Counted from the stretch's first letter, positions 7,827 to 14,423 are shown. The stretch is DNA of 14,423 bases from a virus (IMGVR_UViG_2531839179_000017); one strand, 5' to 3'. The notes: generated by a model from the sequence alone, not told the origin. A program made the numbers and translations.

Positions 7827-8099
7827 TTATCTGTCCTGGTAATTTCGCCATATTTCATCGCTTACACCATCTATACCCATTTCAGCATAAGTGCGATCTA
7901 CTGCCTTTCTCAGGTCTCCGAAGTTATCCGGCGGCTCCGGTGGCTTCTGTGCCTTCCTGGAACATTCCAGCCGTCGCATCGTAACCTGATGCCGTTCCTT
8001 GTCTGTCTCCACCAGCAGCATGACTTCACCCCATCGCGCCGCCGCCCTCCGGTAAAAGCCTTTCGCCTCGAGTTCTTCCGCTATGCGGTCATGTACCAT
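7827..8099 (-). CDS. PerC-family-like small transcriptional regulator
   Basis: Start chosen at ATG 8099 (MVHDRIAEELEAKGFYRRAAARWGEV...) with GAGGGGG 5 nt upstream; the track's longer ORF starts at a GTG inside the ssb gene. The AE.LE.KG..RRAA.RW motif matches my recollection of PerC/Pch-type activators (recall only). Confidence 0.45.
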   Translation of the reverse strand: MVHDRIAEELEAKGFYRRAAARWGEVMLLVETDKERHQVTMRRLECSRKAQKPPEPPDNFGDLRKAVDRTYAEMGIDGVSDEIWRNYQDR

Positions 8100-8109
8100 C
8101 GCCACCCCC

Positions 8110-8520
8110 TCAGAACGGAATACCGTCACCGTAAGGGTCATCGCCTCCCGCTGGTGGCTGATTACCCTGTGTGCCTGTGGTTTTGCGTCTGTTCCCGCCA
8201 GGACGTGCCGCACGGGCACTGATTACGCTGTCTGCAATAACCTGATAACCCTGCCGCGTTTCCCCGTTCTGTCCGGTCCACTGGCTGACCTGCATCGTGC
8301 CGGATACGCTGGCAACGTCGCCTTTTTGATGTTTAGCCAGGAAGTCGGCCTGCTTACCAAATGCGATGACCGATAGCCATAACGTAGCCTGCCCATCCTG
8401 CGCCTGACTACATGGCAACGATACCGCCATACGTGCCAGCGTCATTGGTGTGCCCTTGCTGGTCTGTTTTACCTGCGGGTCGTCCACCAGCCGCCCGTAA
8501 GCTGCTATCTGTGCTGTCAT
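8110..8520 (-). CDS. ssb: Single-stranded DNA-binding protein
   Basis: 136-aa ORF, ATG at 8520 overlapping the upstream stop as ATGA; OB-fold-like core (LWLSVIAFGKQADFLAKHQKGDVASVSGTMQVSQW), Gly/Pro-rich linker and acidic C-terminal tail ending DDPYGDGIPF, the classic SSB tip. Confidence 0.8.
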   Translation of the reverse strand: MTAQIAAYGRLVDDPQVKQTSKGTPMTLARMAVSLPCSQAQDGQATLWLSVIAFGKQADFLAKHQKGDVASVSGTMQVSQWTGQNGETRQGYQVIADSVISARAARPGGNRRKTTGTQGNQPPAGGDDPYGDGIPF

Positions 8521-8769: not shown

Positions 8770-8975
8770 TGCCCACCTCTACCCACTTTTTTCGCCCACT
8801 TTTTACGTTTTCCCACTTCGTCCAACGTGGGAAATTTGGGATTTATATCATCTTGTTTCATAGGTATTTTTTTAGTGCCCACTTTTTGGGATATATACAC
8901 GTGGGAAAGTGGGTAATTTTGTTAAAATTCCGTTAAATCGCCCACCTTTCCCACTTTTAATGCCCACTTTTTACA
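8770..8975. repeat. Iteron cluster with AT-rich spacer: putative replication origin
   Basis: At least nine direct copies of a CCCAC(T)nTTT-type motif (for example GCCCACTTTTT at 8794, 8877 and 8962; CCCACTTTT at 8782 and 8950) plus inverted copies (GTGGGAAA at 8827 and 8901), interrupted by AT-rich stretches at 8838-8876; immediately 3' of the replicative ATPase gene. Confidence 0.7.
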
Positions 8976-10371
8976 GTGGTCCTACATCATCACCGTCAAT
9001 GTAGATCACGTCGTCTTTTTCCAGTTTGGCTAACCATCGTTTAAGGTGTTTTGTGTCATACCCCAGCTTTTTCATATCGTCACGTAACAGCGGGATCGTG
9101 CACTTGTCGCCGTGCTGTGTGCGTGAACGTATGCATCCCCATAGCGCGGTATGGTTTTCCGTCTTGTTGCCTGCCTCCTCGATGCGCTCCAGTTCAACGG
9201 GAGGGCGCGGCTTATCCACCACCACCAGCGACGTGATTAATTCACCGTCAGCGTCGGTAAAAAGCTCCACCACGCGTAAGTCATATGCGGCTTCTTTGAG
9301 TTCCTCCGCGTCCTTCATTTTGGTGCATGAGATAACCAGCGCTTCGCTTCCTGCGTCCTCCCTGCGTATCCGGTATTCAGCATCCAGCGAAGCACGAAAT
9401 GCACTGGAACCGCGCGCGCCTTTCGTCTCATCCTTGCCGGAATGGTGAACCACCAGCACCGTGGCCCCTGTGCGTCGTTTCAGTTCGTCACAACCACGGA
9501 TAAACGCCCCCATATCACGGGAATCATTTTCATCATTCCCACCAAAGCAACGCGCCAGCGTATCCAGAATAATCATGCGTACAGGTTTACCCGTTTCCCG
9601 CTCCACCTGACGGGCAGCGATAACCATTTCATCAACATCAAGCGGGGCAGCCGGAAAGATGGGGCGGTTTACCAGATACAGATTTTTCACCTGCTCATCG
9701 TGCACAACCTCCCAGGCTTTTACACGACGCGGAACACCTATACCGCCTTCACCAACCACATAGAGAACCGCACCATGTGCAACCCTGCGGCCTCCCCACT
9801 GGCGACCAGTGGCAACATGGCACGCCCACGATCCGGCAAGGAATGATTTATAGGACCCGCTAGCCCCGTATATGCTGCATAGCGATACCGCCGGAATAAT
9901 CCCCTTAACCACGTAATCCAGTTGCGTGTCGTATCCGGTAGATCCAACGCTCATCGGTAGCGTGGTTTTTCGCTGGTGGTTTTTTTCTTCCGCCGGCTCT
10001 TTCCCGCGCACCCGTTCCAGGTATTCGCGCCAGTTCTCCCGCATATGGCTGTGCATCCCTTCGGGGTAATAATTCGCATCAGTTACACCCGCCGCCGCCA
10101 GCTTGTGCGCAATGGCATTAATATTTGATGGCCTGATGTGGCCTGCCTTGTACAGCCGGACACAATAGCGCCCCTCGTCGATGATTCTCAGGTCTGCCAG
10201 TTCATCCAGTTGATCATCAGCCAGCACAACGGGAGGCACATTATCGCCAGCCAGTCGCCCGTCCTGTTCCTGCCACTGTTTCGCATGTGCCCAGGCATCA
10301 CTACCCGCAAAAATAATGACTTCGGTCATCTTGTCGTAAGGCTGTTTTTTTAAGTTCGGTGCGCTTTTCAT
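8971..10371 (-). CDS. Replication initiator ATPase/helicase (RecA-like, AAA_25/RepA-type) with C-terminal winged-helix-like region
   Basis: 466-aa ORF, ATG at 10371 overlapping the upstream stop (ATGA); Walker A GASGSYKS, Walker B-like RMIILDTLARCF, conserved VLVVHHSGKD...GARGSSA block typical of RepA/DnaB-like RecA-fold replicative ATPases. Confidence 0.8.
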   Translation of the reverse strand: MKSAPNLKKQPYDKMTEVIIFAGSDAWAHAKQWQEQDGRLAGDNVPPVVLADDQLDELADLRIIDEGRYCVRLYKAGHIRPSNINAIAHKLAAAGVTDANYYPEGMHSHMRENWREYLERVRGKEPAEEKNHQRKTTLPMSVGSTGYDTQLDYVVKGIIPAVSLCSIYGASGSYKSFLAGSWACHVATGRQWGGRRVAHGAVLYVVGEGGIGVPRRVKAWEVVHDEQVKNLYLVNRPIFPAAPLDVDEMVIAARQVERETGKPVRMIILDTLARCFGGNDENDSRDMGAFIRGCDELKRRTGATVLVVHHSGKDETKGARGSSAFRASLDAEYRIRREDAGSEALVISCTKMKDAEELKEAAYDLRVVELFTDADGELITSLVVVDKPRPPVELERIEEAGNKTENHTALWGCIRSRTQHGDKCTIPLLRDDMKKLGYDTKHLKRWLAKLEKDDVIYIDGDDVGPL

Positions 10372-10667
10372 TTCTTGCCCCTGAATCCGTTAATCATGGT
10401 TTTCAGCTTCTGGATGTTTGCCCGTGCCCTGGCGTTGCTGGTGGGCACGTTATGCGGCGCGGTCTGTACCAGAGAAAAATCACGCCGGAACTGATAAACA
10501 GGCATCACGCAATCATATTCGTAACCTTCACGGCGGTAAGTTACGCACCGTCCCGCCACGCCCTTAATCATTACCGTGCCGCCGTACTGGTCGCGGTAAA
10601 TATCACCGCGCATAAATTTAGGGTGAGTGTTGCCACTGGCAGTTAAGCCAGAATATTTAAGTTTCAT
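10368..10667 (-). CDS. Hypothetical protein (DUF4222-like by recall)
   Basis: 99-aa ORF, ATG at 10667 with GGAG 8 nt upstream; motif GDIYRDQYGGTVMIKGV...YRREGYEYDCVMPVYQFRRDF resembles the prophage DUF4222 family as I remember it. Confidence 0.5.
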   Translation of the reverse strand: MKLKYSGLTASGNTHPKFMRGDIYRDQYGGTVMIKGVAGRCVTYRREGYEYDCVMPVYQFRRDFSLVQTAPHNVPTSNARARANIQKLKTMINGFRGKK

Positions 10668-10672
10668 TATTT

Positions 10673-10906
10673 TTATTCTCCGGTGTGCTGTTCGTTATAT
10701 CTGTCGTGCAATGTCTCTATTTCCTGCAACTCATTTATTACAGGCTCAAGAAGCGTTATTAATGATGTAATAATCCGCGTTTTTTTTGCATTACGTTCAT
10801 TATCGCCAAAGGATTCAAGGCACATCCGCAATATTTCGTACATACCTTCAGCGTAAGCAAGGGCACTAAATGCGCGGTCTATTGTTTCAAGATAAATATC
10901 ACGCAT
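10673..10906 (-). CDS. Hypothetical small acidic protein (paralog C)
   Basis: 77-aa ORF, ATG at 10906 one nt after the upstream stop; predicted helical; shares a hydrophobic-helix-Cys-acidic motif (EILRMCLESF) with neighbouring ORFs. Confidence 0.5.
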   Translation of the reverse strand: MRDIYLETIDRAFSALAYAEGMYEILRMCLESFGDNERNAKKTRIITSLITLLEPVINELQEIETLHDRYNEQHTGE

Positions 10907-10907
10907 A

Positions 10908-11129
10908 TTAATCCCCGTCCGTTGTTTTTCTTAAAACAGCTTCTGTCACGAAATCAGCATAGTTAGCGGCAATATCAAGAATATTTAGCCCTGTACCTCT
11001 GTGCTCATCAGTGCAAAGAAAGAAAAAAGCCACCCGCATAATTTCAGATATTGACGAAAGCGCATCAGCCGCATCATCAGGAACGCCGGAAAATTCTTGT
11101 TTCAGGGAATTAAAACGATCATCACGCAT
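10908..11129 (-). CDS. Hypothetical small protein (paralog B)
   Basis: Start chosen at ATG 11129 (MRDDRFNSLK...) immediately after a G8 run that acts as a Shine-Dalgarno; the track's longer start at 11177 overlaps the upstream gene by 55 nt. Motif PDDAADALSSISEIMRVAFFFLCTDE parallels the upstream ORF. Confidence 0.5.
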   Translation of the reverse strand: MRDDRFNSLKQEFSGVPDDAADALSSISEIMRVAFFFLCTDEHRGTGLNILDIAANYADFVTEAVLRKTTDGD

Positions 11130-11343
11130 AACCCCCCCCATTTTCACAATCAGCAACAAGAATATTTTTAGCGTCATTCAGCGACCGCGTTGCGATGTAT
11201 CGGATACATTCCAGGGCGAACAATGTGTATTCCTCCCGTTCTTCCTTTTGTGCAAGCTCTGCCGTGCATTCAATATCAATAAGCGCATGCATCAGCGTAG
11301 TGAGTGCGGCGGCGGCTGCGTCCGGACGGATGTTATTGCACAT
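11122..11343 (-). CDS. Hypothetical small protein (paralog A)
   Basis: Start chosen at ATG 11343 (MCNNIRPDAAAAALTTLMHALIDIECTAE...) with GGAGGGG 6 nt upstream, overlapping the upstream stop; C-terminus ENGGGYA is encoded through the G8 tract. Confidence 0.5.
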   Translation of the reverse strand: MCNNIRPDAAAAALTTLMHALIDIECTAELAQKEEREEYTLFALECIRYIATRSLNDAKNILVADCENGGGYA

Positions 11344-11764
11344 GGTGTACCCCTCCGCATTTTTTTTCGTTAGAAATAAGCGTTCTTCTTTCCTGTTCAT
11401 CGCTCAGGAATACGCAGACCTCACCGCTAAGGCGTTTAAGTAAGCCGATGATTGCCCCTGATTCGCTGTCGGTCATCATGCCAGGGTAATCCTCTGCCAG
11501 TGCGCAAATAACTTCGATTTGGTGGGCGCGTTCTGCTGCCTGTTGTAGTGTGATTTCCTGGCTCATAAGCCTACCCCCTTGGCGAATACGGGCAGCGAAT
11601 ACCATCACGCAGCCAGCCGGGGATTGCTGGCGTGCTTCCTGTTCGCTGGTGGCCTCAATGGTAATCACGCGCGGTTGTGCCGTGCTCAGGGCGATAAAAC
11701 GCCAGATGTATTTATTCAGGTTGTGCGAGCCCCGCCCTTGCGGGTGTGTGGTATGATTTCTCAT
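11333..11764 (-). CDS. First gene of the early operon; N-terminal Icd-like (cell-division-inhibitor-like) region plus C-terminal helical domain
   Basis: Start chosen at ATG 11764 (GAGG 6 nt upstream); the track's longer ORF starts at a TTG inside the operator. Motif YIWRFIALSTAQPRVITIEATSEQEARQ...VFAARIRQ matches my recollection of Icd-like proteins of P4-type elements (unverified). Confidence 0.5.
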   Translation of the reverse strand: MRNHTTHPQGRGSHNLNKYIWRFIALSTAQPRVITIEATSEQEARQQSPAGCVMVFAARIRQGGRLMSQEITLQQAAERAHQIEVICALAEDYPGMMTDSESGAIIGLLKRLSGEVCVFLSDEQERRTLISNEKKCGGVHHVQ

Positions 11765-11861: not shown

Positions 11862-11913
11862 GTGTTGAACACCAATTTAAACCCAGGTGTTAAACACGTC
11901 AAGTGTTGAACAC
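11862..11913. promoter_or_regulatory. Triple palindromic operator (GTGTT-N-AACAC) spanning divergent promoters
   Basis: O1 GGTGTTGAACACC (11861-11873), O2 GTGTTAAACAC (11887-11897), O3 AGTGTTGAACACT (11902-11914). Minus-strand promoter candidate: -35 TTGACG (11902-11897), 17-bp spacer, -10 TAAATT (11879-11874), with O1 at the start site. Plus-strand promoter candidate: -35 TTGAAC inside O3, -10 CATACT (11928-11933). Confidence 0.65.
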
Positions 11914-11962
11914 TTATTTTTTTCCTGCATACTGCATTTGTTTTTTATGAGGGGTACACCAC

Positions 11963-12142
11963 ATGGCGACAAAAGCAGTAAACGCAAAATCACAAACCGT
12001 TGCGGCAAGGGTTCCGCATGAAGTTATGAACAATGTTGAGGCGGTAAAAATGCCTGGCGAAAGTACGGGGCAATTTGTTACTGCAGCATTAAAACGAGAA
12101 GTTGAATATCGCCAGCGGCGCAAGGCCAAAGAACCAGAGTAA
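11963..12142 (+). CDS. Small ribbon-helix-helix-like DNA-binding protein; candidate repressor
   Basis: 59-aa ORF (absent from track, under 60 aa): MATKAVNAKSQTVAARVPHEVMNNVEAVKMPGESTGQFVTAALKREVEYRQRRKAKEPE; GAGGGG 8 nt upstream of ATG; beta-strand, helix, G-x-S/T turn, helix pattern typical of Arc/MetJ/CopG folds; divergent from the early operon. Confidence 0.5.
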   Translation: MATKAVNAKSQTVAARVPHEVMNNVEAVKMPGESTGQFVTAALKREVEYRQRRKAKEPE

Positions 12143-12199
12143 TCACCATCAGCGCCGTGGTGTAAGGTATTACGGCGCATTGCTATGCAGGACAACACA

Positions 12200-12373
12200 A
12201 TGACCGATAAAGAATTGACCAAAACATTATCACCGGCACGGAAAAGACGGCGCAGAAAGATAGAACATGAATCAGAAAGATTCGCGCCATGTGCTTTTGC
12301 CCTTGAGCAATTCCTTAAAGAGTACAGGGAAAAGCGCTCATTGCAGGTATGGCAACGAACTGAACCAGACTGA
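12200..12373 (+). CDS. Hypothetical small basic protein, second gene of the divergent unit
   Basis: Start chosen at ATG 12200 (MTDKELTKTLSPARKRRRRKIEHESERF...) with AGGA 8 nt upstream; the track start at 12185 lacks a well-spaced Shine-Dalgarno. Followed by a plus-strand terminator. Confidence 0.45.
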   Translation: MTDKELTKTLSPARKRRRRKIEHESERFAPCAFALEQFLKEYREKRSLQVWQRTEPD

Positions 12374-12468
12374 TTGCATTGCCCACCAGCCTGATAGCGG
12401 CTATCATCCCCGTGCTTATGTTTGGGATCACACACACAAACGGCGCAGCGGGTTATCTGTTCAGAAAG

Positions 12469-12496
12469 GCGGCTCCATTTCGGGGCCGCTTTTTTT
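12469..12496 (+). terminator. Rho-independent terminator of the plus-strand small-gene unit
   Basis: GCGGCUCC-AUUUC-GGGGCCGC (8-bp stem including one G-U pair) followed by U7 at 12490-12496. Confidence 0.65.
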
Positions 12497-12642
12497 ATGC
12501 CTGAAAAACCCCAATTTTGTGGTTTTCCAGTCTCACCAGGGCGAACGAATCCCCGCCCACGTTCTGGCGTATATTCAATCTTCATGGTTATAGCTCTGTG
12601 TTCAGATGATTGATGTGTGGCGGCTGTGTGCCGCCAGCGTGA

Positions 12643-12831
12643 TTAATGAACTGCCTTGCAGCTATCCTTCCAGGCCAGAACCTCGGATAAAGACCAGCCA
12701 ACGGAACGACCGCCAAGTTTACGACGTGATGGGAATTGTCCGGCCTTTTCCAAGCGGTAGCGGCATGAGCGGCTAAGGCCTGTTAGCTTTTCGCATTCTT
12801 TTTCACGTATAAACCGATCAGTGCTTAACAC
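12643..12831 (-). CDS. alpA: AlpA-family phage regulatory protein (HTH; excision/derepression activator-like)
   Basis: 62-aa ORF: REKECEKLTGLSRSCRYRLEKAGQFPSRRKLGGRSVGWSLSEVLAWK matches the AlpA/prophage CP4-57 regulatory protein pattern; first codon is GTG at 12831 with AGGGGG 5 nt upstream. Confidence 0.8.
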   Translation of the reverse strand: MLSTDRFIREKECEKLTGLSRSCRYRLEKAGQFPSRRKLGGRSVGWSLSEVLAWKDSCKAVH

Positions 12832-13205: not shown

Positions 13206-14423
13206 TTATTTTCTTCTGGCTACTGGTAGCGTGGTTACGTTTTCATGTGTTCCCGCCAGTATCCCTAACCGCTCCGTCCACATATCCAGCGCATTGCGTT
13301 TAGCATCCAGATAACGGGAATGATTATAAACTCGCTGCATTCCTGGCATCTGGTGGCCTGTAAGCTGCTCCACGACATGCGGATCAACGCCTAAATCGTT
13401 CAGCATGGTTGTAAAGGTGCGCCGGATGTCATGCAGTGACCAGTGAGGATGATTAAGCCTCCTGTGCGCTAATCTTCCATACTGCGATACGCTGGCCTCC
13501 TGTTTCACTTCCCCCAGCAATAAGCCCGTGTGCCTGTTCTGCTCCACCAGCTGCGTGACGAACGGCAGGATCGCTTCCGGTATGGGCCGGAATATTGCGA
13601 CCTTCGTTTTGCTGTGCTCCTTCGGAACGGTCCATAGCATTTCCGTGAAATCCCACTCCCCGATCTCCGATAACCTCAGTTCTACCGTTCTGGCTCCGAA
13701 GACAATCAGGAGGCGGATTAACGCGACGTAGTAAGGGGAGAATATTTTTTTGTCCAGTGCCTGCAATAATTCGCCAAGTTCTTTGTTACTTAAGACACGT
13801 TCGCTTATATCCGGTTTTTTCCCAACGTCCGCCACGTTCAGATCGTCCAGAACGTTGCTGATTGCATAGCGCCGCCTACGGCAGAACTTAAGCGCCTGTT
13901 TGCACGCCTGTAGCACGAATCCGGCAGTAACAGGCGTTCGCTTTGCCACCTGGTCAAAACAGGCCAGCCAGTGCCGTAGCTCGCATTTATCCAGCGGCAT
14001 AGCACCAATCTGCTGTATTACGTGATTATTAAGTCGCCTTTTCAGGGCGATATAATCCACGCGGTTTTCCTTTACGTAATACTCAAGCCAGTAGGTGAGC
14101 GCATCGCCAACCGTTACCGGCTTTAACGCTTCCTGTACGGTGTAATTAAGCTCATGACGTGGATTTTTCCCCTCTGCCAGCCATGCGCGACACTGGGCGG
14201 CTTTTTCCCTGGCTGATTTCAGGCTCAGATCAGGATAACTTCCCAGCTTAATGCGTTCGGGTCGTGTCTCCCTTCCCGTTCCGGCCCTGTATGTGAAATA
14301 CCAGGTCAATTTCCCTGATGTTAAATATTTCACGCTCAGGTTTCCGCCATCACTATAAAACGTGTTTTTCTCCGCTGGCTTACCATGAAGTTTCCTTAGC
14401 AAGGTATCGCTCAGTTTGTTCAT
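13206..14423 (-). CDS. int: Site-specific tyrosine integrase (P4/CP4-57-type, N-terminal arm-binding domain)
   Basis: 405-aa ORF with ATG at the last window base (14423-14421); N-terminal DUF4102-like region (KLTWYFTYRAGTGRETRPERIKLGSYPDLSLKSAREKA), C-terminal catalytic region with HDIRRTF...LTGHQ...RVYNHSRYL (R-H-R-Y signature). Confidence 0.9.
   Translation of the reverse strand: MNKLSDTLLRKLHGKPAEKNTFYSDGGNLSVKYLTSGKLTWYFTYRAGTGRETRPERIKLGSYPDLSLKSAREKAAQCRAWLAEGKNPRHELNYTVQEALKPVTVGDALTYWLEYYVKENRVDYIALKRRLNNHVIQQIGAMPLDKCELRHWLACFDQVAKRTPVTAGFVLQACKQALKFCRRRRYAISNVLDDLNVADVGKKPDISERVLSNKELGELLQALDKKIFSPYYVALIRLLIVFGARTVELRLSEIGEWDFTEMLWTVPKEHSKTKVAIFRPIPEAILPFVTQLVEQNRHTGLLLGEVKQEASVSQYGRLAHRRLNHPHWSLHDIRRTFTTMLNDLGVDPHVVEQLTGHQMPGMQRVYNHSRYLDAKRNALDMWTERLGILAGTHENVTTLPVARRK

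Follow-up and report, generated by a model that had tools for sequence, protein, structure and literature searches.

A cassette mosaic of four apparently unrelated small genes in the early operon of a putative capsid-forming PICI

The closest described relatives of the locus analyzed here are the PICIs of the EcCIEDL933, O-island 51 (OI-51, CP-933C), and Sakai Sp7 (ECs1577–ECs1582) type, which carry int, alpA, an array of small genes, a replicase gene, and genes for SSB and PerC/PchE, along with a capsid and terminase module. The Sakai Sp7 array comprises ECs1577 (Icd-like), ECs1578 (186 nt, 8-nt overlap), ECs1579 (192 nt, 1-nt overlap), ECs1580, and the gene for RgdR, and leads into a primase gene. 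Small genes with host-killing and helper-derepressing functions likewise precede the primase/helicase gene in the left operon of P4 (kil, eta, cI, epsilon, orf151, and alpha), and the immI operon of P1 contains icd, which is translationally coupled to the downstream ant and whose product inhibits cell division. PICIs and P4 share only AlpA, Pri-Rep, and Int, and these only distantly (PMC6092414). According to the literature on EcCIEDL933 and EcCICFT073, induction and transfer require AlpA as well as a helper phage, and in EcCICFT073 the genes downstream of alpA are activated by AlpA (PMC6092414).

Two experimental precedents bear on islands of this kind. RgdR represses motility and is an activator of LEE1 and of type III secretion; these activities depend on the variant, that of ED1a being inactive, and its binding to DNA is non-specific (PMC3378721). 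Complementation mapping of OI-51 traced the type III secretion effect to ecs1581 alone, and the element family affects colonization (PMC3378721). The second precedent is ECOR61, described as a “prophage-encoded superinfection exclusion system” (Silas et al., bioRxiv 10.1101/2023.04.06.535777). In ECOR61, cell death is triggered by the phage gene orf24 and is suppressed when a transposon disrupts an Icd-like gene or either of the two small ORFs that follow it (186 nt with an 8-nt overlap and 192 nt with a 1-nt overlap; QOYT01000045.1:8940-9675), bearing in mind that insertions in upstream operon genes can be polar. The effect was rebuilt only with all six linked genes, including the primase gene, in a reconstitution that was called muted, and the Icd-like protein was proposed as the effector (bioRxiv 10.1101/2023.04.06.535777). 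By gene lengths, overlaps, and the six-gene count, ECOR61 resembles the Sp7-type operon.

The DNA analyzed here, referred to as the window, is a viral stretch of 14,423 nt that encodes int, AlpA, a RepA helicase, SSB, PerC, capsid, protease, portal, connector, a head completion protein, HNH, TerS, and TerL. The PICI core is present (Phage_integrase, Phage_AlpA, and an AAA_25 RepA-type helicase) in the order seen in Sakai Sp7, and Pfam has hits for all parts of the element's own capsid and packaging module (major capsid, protease, portal, connectors, HNH, TerS, and TerL). From the terminase gene to the left end of the window, no tail gene was recognized; that end holds a fragment of a tqsA-like membrane-protein gene, as in the related locus L001. 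The window shares synteny with both Sakai Sp7 and E. coli 2013C-4991, and the closest complete E. coli genomes matched a 1,651-nt query with 97% identity over 95% of its length and with 93% identity over the full query. An earlier sequence-only reading had taken the region for part of a satellite, which agrees with this combination of PICI core, own capsid and packaging genes, and no recognized tail gene. Judged by gene content and order, the element is a capsid-forming PICI (phage-inducible chromosomal island) of the EcCIEDL933/OI-51/Sp7 type, and region 10368–11764 makes up the promoter-proximal half of its early, or replication, operon.

On the minus strand, the operon runs from an Icd-like gene through four small genes, here called A, B, C, and D, to rgdR (gene E) and the replicase gene. 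As in Sp7, the Icd-like gene comes first, A, D, and RgdR belong to the families of ECs1579, ECs1580, and ECs1581, respectively, and rgdR overlaps the start of the replicase gene. The two differ in their cassettes, B and C being present in the window but not in the Sp7-type array and ECs1578 the other way round; in the replicase, which is a 466-aa RepA-type helicase in the window and a 710-aa primase in Sp7; and in a frameshift fusion of the Icd-like gene and A in the window. The ECOR61 locus is similar in that it, too, has an Icd-like gene followed by overlapping small ORFs and a replicase gene; in the window this series includes rgdR, and the Icd-like gene, A, D, and RgdR are common to the window and the Sp7-type operon. 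However, one ECOR61 suppressor gene matches ECs1578 in length, and there is no ECs1578 homologue in the window; moreover, ECOR61 has a primase where the window has a helicase, although primases are encoded in sister loci that have this array of small genes. The likeness to P4 is an analogy of layout, namely a satellite operon with small genes ahead of a primase/helicase gene; no sequence similarity between A–D and P4 proteins was detected, and P4-like prophages (ECOR15 locus) have an AlpA-family gene and an Icd-like gene adjoining the primase gene. With P1 immI, the operon shares an Icd-like first gene and overlapping junctions that parallel the icd/ant coupling, but its downstream genes are unrelated to ant.

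Minus-strand ORFs fill region 10368–11764 without gaps. They are tightly packed, and that they are genuine genes, as first proposed, is borne out by homologue families containing tens to hundreds of clusters per small gene and by purifying selection (pairwise dN/dS 0.26–0.51). The sequence-only reading had all stop and start codons overlapping, which holds for three of the five junctions (11, 8, and 4 nt); spacers of 1 nt and 5 nt lie between C and D and between D and E, respectively. Its proposal of translational coupling fits this packing. Each start codon in the array is preceded by a Shine–Dalgarno-like purine run, and because the downstream starts lie within the preceding gene or a few bases past it, with ribosome-binding sites inside that gene, the products are probably made jointly by coupled translation.

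Upstream of the operon, three perfect 11-bp palindromes, GTGTT(G/A)AACAC, are found as exact copies at 11862–11872, 11887–11897, and 11903–11913, against 0.39 copies expected in the whole window. This operator-like region (11862..11913) separates the operon from a divergent YlcI/YnfO gene. Interleaved with the palindromes, some 110 nt upstream of the Icd-like start, is a candidate sigma-70-like promoter on the minus strand (11874..11902; TTGACG, 17-nt spacer, TAAATT), which is a consensus match in a region where promoter-like sites do not exceed the number expected by chance. No terminator-like site was found on the minus strand from this candidate promoter to the end of the helicase gene.

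The first ORF (11333–11764, minus strand, 143 codons) had been read as a single gene, correctly as regards its Icd-like character, but it comprises two genes in one frame. The Icd-like gene (11567..11764, minus strand) matches NCBIfam NF033153 (phage_ICD_like) with 67 bits against a cutoff of 25 (residues 19–62, model positions 1–48). In relatives it has about 66 codons and is separate from A with an ATGA overlap; in E. coli 2013C-4991 it is a separate gene of 201 nt. PHROGs likewise divides the 143-codon ORF into two families, phrog_6196 on residues 1–63 and phrog_1478 (positions 1–61) on residues 68–128, so the view that the C-terminal half is a unit of its own stands. Alignment with two related loci (L001 and L002) revealed a 1-nt insertion at 11579..11580 (minus strand), where the window has AA and the relatives a single A; it is found in the window only, which reads CAAGGGGG where 17/17 other loci read CAGGGGG. 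Because this insertion puts both genes in one frame, the Icd-like gene reads straight into A.

Gene A (11333..11566, minus strand, 77 aa) retains its own Shine–Dalgarno sequence (AAGGGGG) and ATG. Its family is ECs1579/phrog_1478 (33 cluster representatives), and its identity to ECs1579 is 52.5%. Its predicted structure is a two-helix hairpin (helices 7–26 and 33–71, pLDDT 90.9). The best Foldseek matches, none at E ≤ 0.001, were dimerizing hairpins, which are a typical protein-binding module. An A8 tract near the 3′ end of A (11360..11367, minus strand) is found in 20 loci, and two loci have an A7 allele that fuses A and B in frame; such an A–B fusion (145 aa) is among the annotated proteins of strain 2013C-4538, whose genome is complete. 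Family A is spread across Enterobacterales, with members in temperate phages and prophages whose hosts are Salmonella, Klebsiella, Serratia, and Morganella. In true phages it lies in early-left operons, just past the repressor and far from the replication genes. Such lambdoid early-left arrays (e.g., Fels-1 STM0898.6n and Klebsiella and Serratia prophages) resemble the window in having A among small overlapping ORFs past a cI-like repressor, and the Fels-1 record itself notes similarity to ECs1579. They differ in that A alone is shared: no homologue of B (by tblastn), C, or D was found in 50,697 phage genomes, and the sources of these three families are named Escherichia or Shigella only.

Gene B (11122..11343, minus strand, 73 aa, phrog_5146 family) is the most diverged of the array (dN/dS 0.51). 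Gene C (10908..11129, minus strand, 73 aa, phrog_24341 family) belongs to a family with an invariant N-terminus, MRDDRFN.LK.EF, and is predicted to form three helices (2–12, 20–38, and 41–70; pLDDT 87.4). The Shine–Dalgarno sequence of C is a G8 tract within the last codons of B (11132..11139, minus strand), and its length varies across loci. Among 54 loci, the tract was G7 in 15, G8 in 23, G9 in 13, G10 in 2, and G11 in 1, although homopolymer sequencing error could explain part of this variation; the length differs even among loci with identical 100–200-nt flanks on each side. G7 and G10 give an in-frame B–C fusion and G8, G9, and G11 give split genes, such that B and C are fused in 17/54 loci. 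A 148-aa B–C fusion is annotated in the complete genome of SW070917, and the fused family exists in PHROGs as phrog_2512. Slippage in the tract has repeatedly fused B and C in frame, and numerous strains retain the fusion, so the two genes very likely work together. No sign of on/off switching by the tract was found; both frames are open at every length, and the effect is a split or a fused B–C, or a different B tail.

Gene D (10673..10906, minus strand, 77 aa, phrog_2196 family) is a distant relative of Sakai ECs1580 (family HMM E = 2.3e-10); its family comprises 688 clusters. Gene E (10368..10667, minus strand, 99 aa) had been called DUF4222-like, and it matches Pfam DUF4222 (PF13973) with 82.6 bits against a cutoff of 27 over residues 16–68. 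The assignment can be taken further. The protein has R20-G21-D22 and 79% identity to ECs1581 across 99 aa, RgdR orthologues being variants with >77% identity (PMC3378721), and by these sequence measures gene E is the characterized regulator RgdR. Its stop codon overlaps the start of the RepA-type helicase gene (AAA_25; 8971..10371, minus strand), which closes this part of the operon, in an ATGA.

The presence of RgdR could suggest that A–D, too, are lysogenic-conversion regulators that act on host-chromosomal programs such as virulence or motility. The regulatory effects of RgdR on LEE1 and motility, a PerC gene on the same island, and the influence on colonization noted above would all accord with this. 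On the other hand, the type III secretion effect of OI-51 is accounted for by ecs1581, Pfam and NCBIfam detected no DNA-binding domain in A–D, and these genes lie in an operon that should stay off before induction of the island. We regard such a role as very improbable.

The sequence-only reading had proposed that A (the C-terminal half of the first ORF) and the following ORFs B, C, and D are diverged tandem duplicates of one small helical gene. The four genes are adjacent, alike in length (73–77 aa), and all helical; C and D share an MRD start and an F at position 13; and in-frame chimeras of neighbors of about unit length exist (P0035, P0038, P0151, and P0207). The best single-sequence pair is B–C, in which a PD.AA.AL stretch aligns. 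Yet none of the six pairs was significant in Smith–Waterman comparisons with shuffles, including B–C (z = 2.1, p ~0.05 uncorrected), and iterative family HMM searches over 83 loci never crossed families despite a small, permissive database. HMM–HMM comparison of the four segments, which that reading had named as one way to check the idea, gave a probability of ≤0.7% for all six pairs in twelve clean profile–profile comparisons, obtained after removal of chimeric sequences. The chimera junctions are not equivalent (A22 to B14, B62 to C50, and C51 to D44 or D51), no PHROG family is common to different genes, and the predicted topologies of the two modeled proteins, with two helices in A and three in C, differ. 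The genes also differ in range, A being spread across Enterobacterales phages and B, C, and D not, and they are gained and lost independently.

The motifs on which the duplication proposal was built (VICALAED, IECTAELA, FFLCTDEH, and LRMCLESF) are literally present, but they do not amount to a shared motif. A loose pattern that fits them occurs in 23–55% of composition-preserving shuffles per protein, and the joint probability of 0.015 applies to a pattern chosen post hoc. No conservation of the motif was seen within family A, B, C, or D, the cysteine being kept in 11/26 (42%), 61/106 (58%), 25/110 (23%), and 9/157 (6%) sequences, respectively, and in no profile–profile comparison were the proposed segments aligned to each other. 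Tandem duplication thus appears highly unlikely; as far as sequence and profile comparisons and the models of A and C can tell, A–D are four unrelated small all-helical families and not paralogues. Because A–D show no detectable relationship, we read the array as a mosaic of cassettes rather than as a duplicated family.

The distribution of the genes shows the same mosaic. Among 83 related loci, 25 architectures were found, with A in 23, B in 71, C in 74, and D in 81, and in other loci the same slots are occupied by alternative inserts. The stretch from the Icd-like gene to rgdR thus acts as a variable slot in which A–D are exchangeable cassettes, and the array is found upstream of at least three replicase types. 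The coupling of the array to the replicase gene could alternatively mean that A–D are accessory replication factors, for example in origin binding or helicase loading. In every case the array directly precedes the replicase gene, whose start rgdR overlaps; it travels with a conserved replicase N-terminal domain (the N-terminal ~60 aa of the helicase are common to the primase-type replicases of sister elements); SSB is encoded downstream; and RgdR binds DNA, if non-specifically (PMC3378721). Nevertheless, many loci do without A, B, or C, as seen in D-E, C-D-E, and B-D-E arrays, the same cassettes accompany helicase-type and primase-type replicases, A occurs in phage early-left operons remote from replication genes, and no DNA-binding fold or family was detected. 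A replication role therefore seems to us distinctly unlikely.

Functional matches to A–D were absent from PADLOC, Pfam, NCBIfam, and PDB sequence searches, and Foldseek gave none at E ≤ 0.001. With ECOR61 as the published precedent, a host-takeover or helper-directed role for the small genes is a reasonable reading by analogy. One version of such a role would make A–D counter-defense or helper-manipulating factors, such as antirepressor-like inducers of the helper or inhibitors of host immunity or of helper packaging, without growth arrest. The proteins are small, fast-evolving, taxonomically narrow, and variable in presence, with relaxed purifying selection; they sit where P4, ahead of its primase gene alpha, has kil, eta, epsilon, and orf151; family A is found in phage accessory regions; and the hairpins matched by the model of A would suit binding to proteins. 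This version may be worth keeping in mind, but we consider it unlikely, as there were zero matches to known anti-defense or defense families and the only related experiment, on ECOR61, indicates host growth arrest.

The best explanation of the whole, to which we assign a probability of roughly 55%, is an early PICI operon of unrelated cassettes that arrests host growth or division during amplification of the island. A phage signal would turn the operon on, via AlpA in E. coli PICIs, and the Icd-like protein and the small helical proteins would then bind host or helper proteins. Host growth or division would be arrested while the replicase amplifies the island, and the outcome would be satellite take-over that doubles as exclusion of the infecting phage. 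The roles of each of A–D, and the carry-over of the properties of AlpA, RgdR, and ECOR61 to this element, are inferred by analogy with those systems.

New here are the G7–G11 toggle between split and fused B–C and the match, in gene lengths and overlaps, of the Sp7-type operon to the ECOR61 growth-arrest system. The two may be connected if the G tract (and, less so, the A tract at the A/B junction) is a functional switch beyond a mutational hot spot, with the mix of split and fused B–C tuning an Icd-centered growth-arrest module; we rate this idea as a long shot. Were it true, slippage in replication or transcription would mix split and fused B–C within a population or a single cell, and the mixture would tune the activity or the trigger specificity of an abortive-infection-like satellite module.

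The array of small genes on the minus strand at 10368–11764 belongs to a phage satellite of the capsid-forming phage-inducible chromosomal island (cf-PICI) type. As the sequence-only reading had held, the 14.4-kb window has the content of a satellite. It carries, all on the minus strand, a tyrosine integrase (13206–14423), AlpA (12643–12831), a RepA-type AAA_25 helicase of 466 aa (8971–10371), SSB followed downstream by a PerC/Pch-family activator (7827–8219; 150.8 bits), and a full set of head and packaging genes (major capsid, S78 protease, portal, connector, head-completion protein, HNH, TerS, and TerL); nothing in the window was recognized as a tail gene. The gene order is that of Sp7, the prophage-like element of strain Sakai that contains ECs1577–ECs1582. 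The position of Sp7 corresponds to the coordinates given for the O-island 51 (OI-51)/CP-933C region in the study of the regulator RgdR (PMC3378721), and CP-933C is named in the literature as the cf-PICI EcCIEDL933. DNA related to the array is present in 1,826 of 5,426 complete E. coli genomes (about a third). The best matches among these show 97% identity over 95% of a 1,651-nt query, or 93% over its full length, which makes the window a new allele rather than a known sequence; phage genomes searched with DNA of the array region gave no match. The operon itself is of a known kind: RgdR and the Icd-like gene were already known, and the genes here called A–D were known only as unnamed hypothetical genes.

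The ORFs lie where the sequence-only reading had placed them, but its array of five ORFs resolves into six gene units: the Icd-like gene (11567–11764), A (11333–11566), B (11122–11343), C (10908–11129), D (10673–10906), and E (10368–10667). The first ORF, of 143 codons (11333–11764), holds two of these. The first unit belongs to the Icd-like family, as proposed from the sequence. Residues 1–63 of the ORF match an Icd-like PHROG, and residues 68–128 match phrog_1478 from profile position 1. In E. coli 2013C-4991 and elppa4, the Icd-like gene and A are separate genes joined by an ATGA overlap, and alignment with relatives shows that an extra A at 11579/11580 (minus strand) fuses the two in the window. 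The insertion occurs in the window and in none of the other 17 loci that have this junction (18 in all), and it may be either a mutation private to this allele or an error of sequencing. Because gene A retains its own ribosome-binding site (AAGGGGG) and ATG (at 11566), and because two PHROG families are involved, we count six units. The overlapping stop and start codons described earlier were found at three junctions, namely from Icd/A to B (11 nt), from B to C (8 nt), and from E to the helicase gene (4 nt, ATGA), whereas C and D are separated by a 1-nt spacer and D and E by a 5-nt spacer. Every start codon has a purine-rich site within or just past the preceding gene, and all junction spacings are compatible with coupled translation. 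All six units have many homologues, and dN/dS values from pairwise comparison of related loci all stay under 1 (Icd-like, 0.37; A, 0.40; B, 0.51; C, 0.37; D, 0.42; E, 0.26), which identifies them as real coding sequences.

Upstream of the array, a promoter-like site (11902–11874, minus strand) is interleaved with three perfect palindromes, GTGTT(G/A)AACAC, at 11862–11913, compared with 0.39 copies expected for the full length of the window; from there to the end of the helicase gene, the minus strand has no terminator-like site. A short YlcI/YnfO-family gene (11963–12142; 59 aa) diverges from the array. Its product looks like a candidate small ribbon-helix-helix protein, and the palindromes and this gene probably constitute the operator/repressor pair of the island. 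The YlcI/YnfO protein has 106 aa in strain 2013C-4991 versus 59 aa in the window, and just downstream of the gene lies an ORF for 62 Arg/Lys-rich residues (12185–12373, plus strand); alleles appear to vary in this part, too. A long low-complexity ORF (11914–12585, minus strand) runs antisense to the YlcI/YnfO gene. Its counterpart in the Sakai locus (L087, 2732–3475) is the hypothetical protein ECs1576, which carries the PGAP label “Icd-like pseudogene,” and in strain 2013C-4991 an ORF of this type is open right into the Icd-like gene, giving 381 aa. The ORF may be spurious, or it may correspond to the “long N-terminal extension” mentioned for the Icd-like protein in the published exclusion system of ECOR61 (bioRxiv 10.1101/2023.04.06.535777).

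The last unit, E, had been called DUF4222-like, which we confirm; it is an orthologue of a characterized regulator. The 99-aa protein has an RGD sequence at residues 20–22 and is 79% identical to ECs1581, which is RgdR, an activator of LEE1 and type III secretion that represses motility and binds DNA non-specifically (PMC3378721). Counting the PerC/Pch activator, the island carries two regulators of types with known effects on the LEE pathogenicity island. That A–D are themselves host-gene regulators like RgdR and PerC seems very improbable, since the mapping of OI-51 implicated ecs1581 only (PMC3378721). Gene A falls into the family of ECs1579 (52.5% identity; HMM E = 1.7e-21) and D is a remote member of that of ECs1580 (HMM E = 2.3e-10), whereas B and C lack a counterpart in Sp7. 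Sequence searches with A–D in PADLOC, Pfam, NCBIfam, and PDB returned nothing informative, and no relative of D was confirmed in a scan of one genome per species.

It had been proposed that A–D arose by tandem duplication and divergence and share a motif (VICALAED, IECTAELA, FFLCTDEH, and LRMCLESF, respectively). No sequence or profile test supports a common origin. Smith–Waterman scores compared with 1,000 shuffles gave z values between −1.0 and 0.8 for five of the six gene pairs, and z = 2.1 for B–C (p of about 0.05 before correction for six tests). The only PHROG family matched by two different genes was phrog_2512, a family of fused B–C proteins whose halves match B and C separately. Jackhmmer searches started from each gene against the 4,837 ORFs of 83 loci (80 fetched via the DUF4222 protein, two E. 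coli genome loci, and the window) recruited no member of another family at E ≤0.001. A single-linkage BLAST cluster that united Icd-like, A, B, and C was caused by fused ORFs, not by similarity. Profile–profile comparison gave a probability of at most 1.3% for every pair in a first pass. With deeper alignments C and D appeared homologous (92%, E = 5.5e-7), an artifact of three natural C–D chimeras (P0151, P0155, and P0207) in the D alignment; the value fell to 0.1% once proteins spanning several families were removed, leaving all six pairs at or below 0.6%. An independent run with curated alignments gave at most 0.7%, and the proposed motif segments were paired in none of these alignments. One further alignment, seeded with P0155, placed C sequences wrongly onto D and was discarded.

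The motif itself is unspecific: a loose pattern fitting all four strings arises in 23 to 55% of shuffles per protein. Its cysteine is retained in 11 of 26 members of family A, 61 of 106 of B, 25 of 110 of C, and 9 of 157 of D, where tryptophan is usual at this position. The AlphaFold2 model of A is a two-helix hairpin (helices 7–26 and 33–71; pLDDT 90.9), and that of C places a short helix at the N terminus ahead of a hairpin (helices 2–12, 20–38, and 41–70; pLDDT 87.4). In both models the motif closes the helix before the hairpin turn, a position that is a generic trait of helical hairpins. Fold searches with the A model (BFVD and PDB) and the C model (PDB) yielded nothing at E ≤0.001, the matches being generic helical hairpins. 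The tandem-duplication reading is therefore not supported, and having failed every sequence and profile test, an array of paralogues has in our judgment hardly any chance of being correct; we regard A–D as unrelated cassettes.

Neighboring cassettes are often joined. A run of eight G residues at 11132–11139 (minus strand), inside the last codons of B, forms the Shine–Dalgarno sequence of C, and its length varies among 54 loci (within L001–L082). Seven G residues (15 loci) or 10 (2 loci) produce an in-frame B–C fusion, of about 150 aa in the former case; eight (23 loci, the state of the window), nine (13 loci, with a different B tail), and 11 (1 locus) leave the genes split. Tract length differs between loci with identical flanks of 100 to 200 nt on each side, which indicates recurrent slippage, and because no length shuts either reading frame, the tract is not an on/off switch. 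Complete genomes include fused forms among their annotated proteins: a B–C fusion of 148 aa in the SW070917 chromosome, and an A–B fusion of 145 aa in strain 2013C-4538, caused by A7 instead of A8 at 11360–11367. Fusions that recur and are tolerated classically point to two proteins working together. Besides the three C–D chimeras, the relatives of 10673–11764 include further natural in-frame deletion chimeras of neighbors (P0035, P0038, P0027, P0147, and P0185). The joins link A1–22 to B14–73, B1–62 to C50–73, and C1–51 to D44–77 or D51–77, and a further chimera links an Icd-like N terminus to the last part of B together with C. Several of the chimeras approach single-gene length.

The cassettes also differ in distribution and are gained and lost independently, which likewise speaks against tandem duplication. 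Temperate phages and prophages of Salmonella (Fels-1), Klebsiella, Serratia, Morganella, and Symbiopectobacterium carry family A in the early-left operon directly after the repressor. For B, C, and D, only Escherichia and Shigella names were among the matches listed in a search of 5.8 billion proteins, and 50,697 phage genomes yielded no tblastn match. Of the 83 loci, 23 carry A, 71 carry B, 74 carry C, and 81 carry D, in 25 architectures that include D–E, C–D–E, and B–D–E. Unrelated inserts take these same positions; 11 loci, for instance, have a 127-aa ORF between B and C, and the A position can hold other ORFs (for example, in loci L003, L043, and L045). The 127-aa ORF is cysteine-rich (MCRRCTMHNLSISDLNSIQFDEKFTG...; L010, L019, L064, and other loci); another cassette is a 70-aa relative of its N-terminal half, and locus L021 has an ECs1578-type ORF of 61 aa. 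Fast and patchy evolution would suit counter-defense or helper-manipulating factors, a role that we consider unlikely, though the least so of the alternatives.

The array lies upstream of at least three replicase types, so the cassettes are not matched to one catalytic replicase. Comparison of the window with loci L002, L015, and L087 showed that all replicase forms (the 466-aa RepA-type helicase, primase-family proteins of about 584 to 604 and 710 to 714 aa, and a truncated form) have in common only the N-terminal ~60 aa (MK.APN.K...TEVIIFAGSDAW.HAKQWQE...; 10190–10371 in the window). This places the replicase recombination point inside the gene, the small-gene array traveling with the N-terminal domain. 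The position of the small genes and the coupling of rgdR to the replicase could mean that their products are replication accessory factors; given that A–C are dispensable and that A occurs in early-left operons of phages, we think this rather unlikely.

We infer instead that the window carries a cassette variant of the operon type of Sp7 and, probably, of ECOR61. In ECOR61, suppressor transposon insertions fell in the Icd-like gene and the next two hypothetical genes (QOYT01000045.1:9309-9675, 9131-9317, and 8940-9132), and the Icd-like protein was considered the likely effector (bioRxiv 10.1101/2023.04.06.535777). By these coordinates, the two small genes measure 186 and 192 nt, and the overlaps are 8 and 1 nt long. 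Sp7 has the same layout: ECs1577 (Icd-like) and ECs1578 (186 nt) share 8 nt, ECs1578 and ECs1579 (192 nt) share 1 nt, and ECs1580, RgdR, and a primase follow, for six genes in total. Matched on gene lengths, overlaps, and gene count, the ECOR61 system is probably the early operon of an Sp7-type island. In the island EcCICFT073, helper phages turn on alpA, AlpA activates the genes downstream of it, and induction without control damages the host (PMC6092414). By analogy, a phage signal would turn on the operon through AlpA; the Icd-like and small helical proteins would bind targets in the host or helper and arrest growth or division, during which the replicase could amplify the island, the outcome being take-over by the satellite and exclusion of the incoming phage.

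The region of the array has been drawn as white “hypothetical” boxes in maps of E. coli phage-inducible islands since these were first described. The cassette mosaic, the split/fusion polymorphism of the G tract, the frequent in-frame chimeras of neighbors, and the probable identity of the ECOR61 system with a PICI early operon are of modest interest. As the genes are unrelated cassettes and not a gene family, they call for separate assays, with B and C best examined together. The presence of the virulence regulator RgdR inside a replication operon raises the question of its role for the island itself. The link between the operon types suggests that an unexplained “superinfection exclusion system” amounts to a phage satellite's programme of induction, and it makes the Icd-like gene, families A and D, and RgdR candidates for how a satellite may stop the growth of its host.
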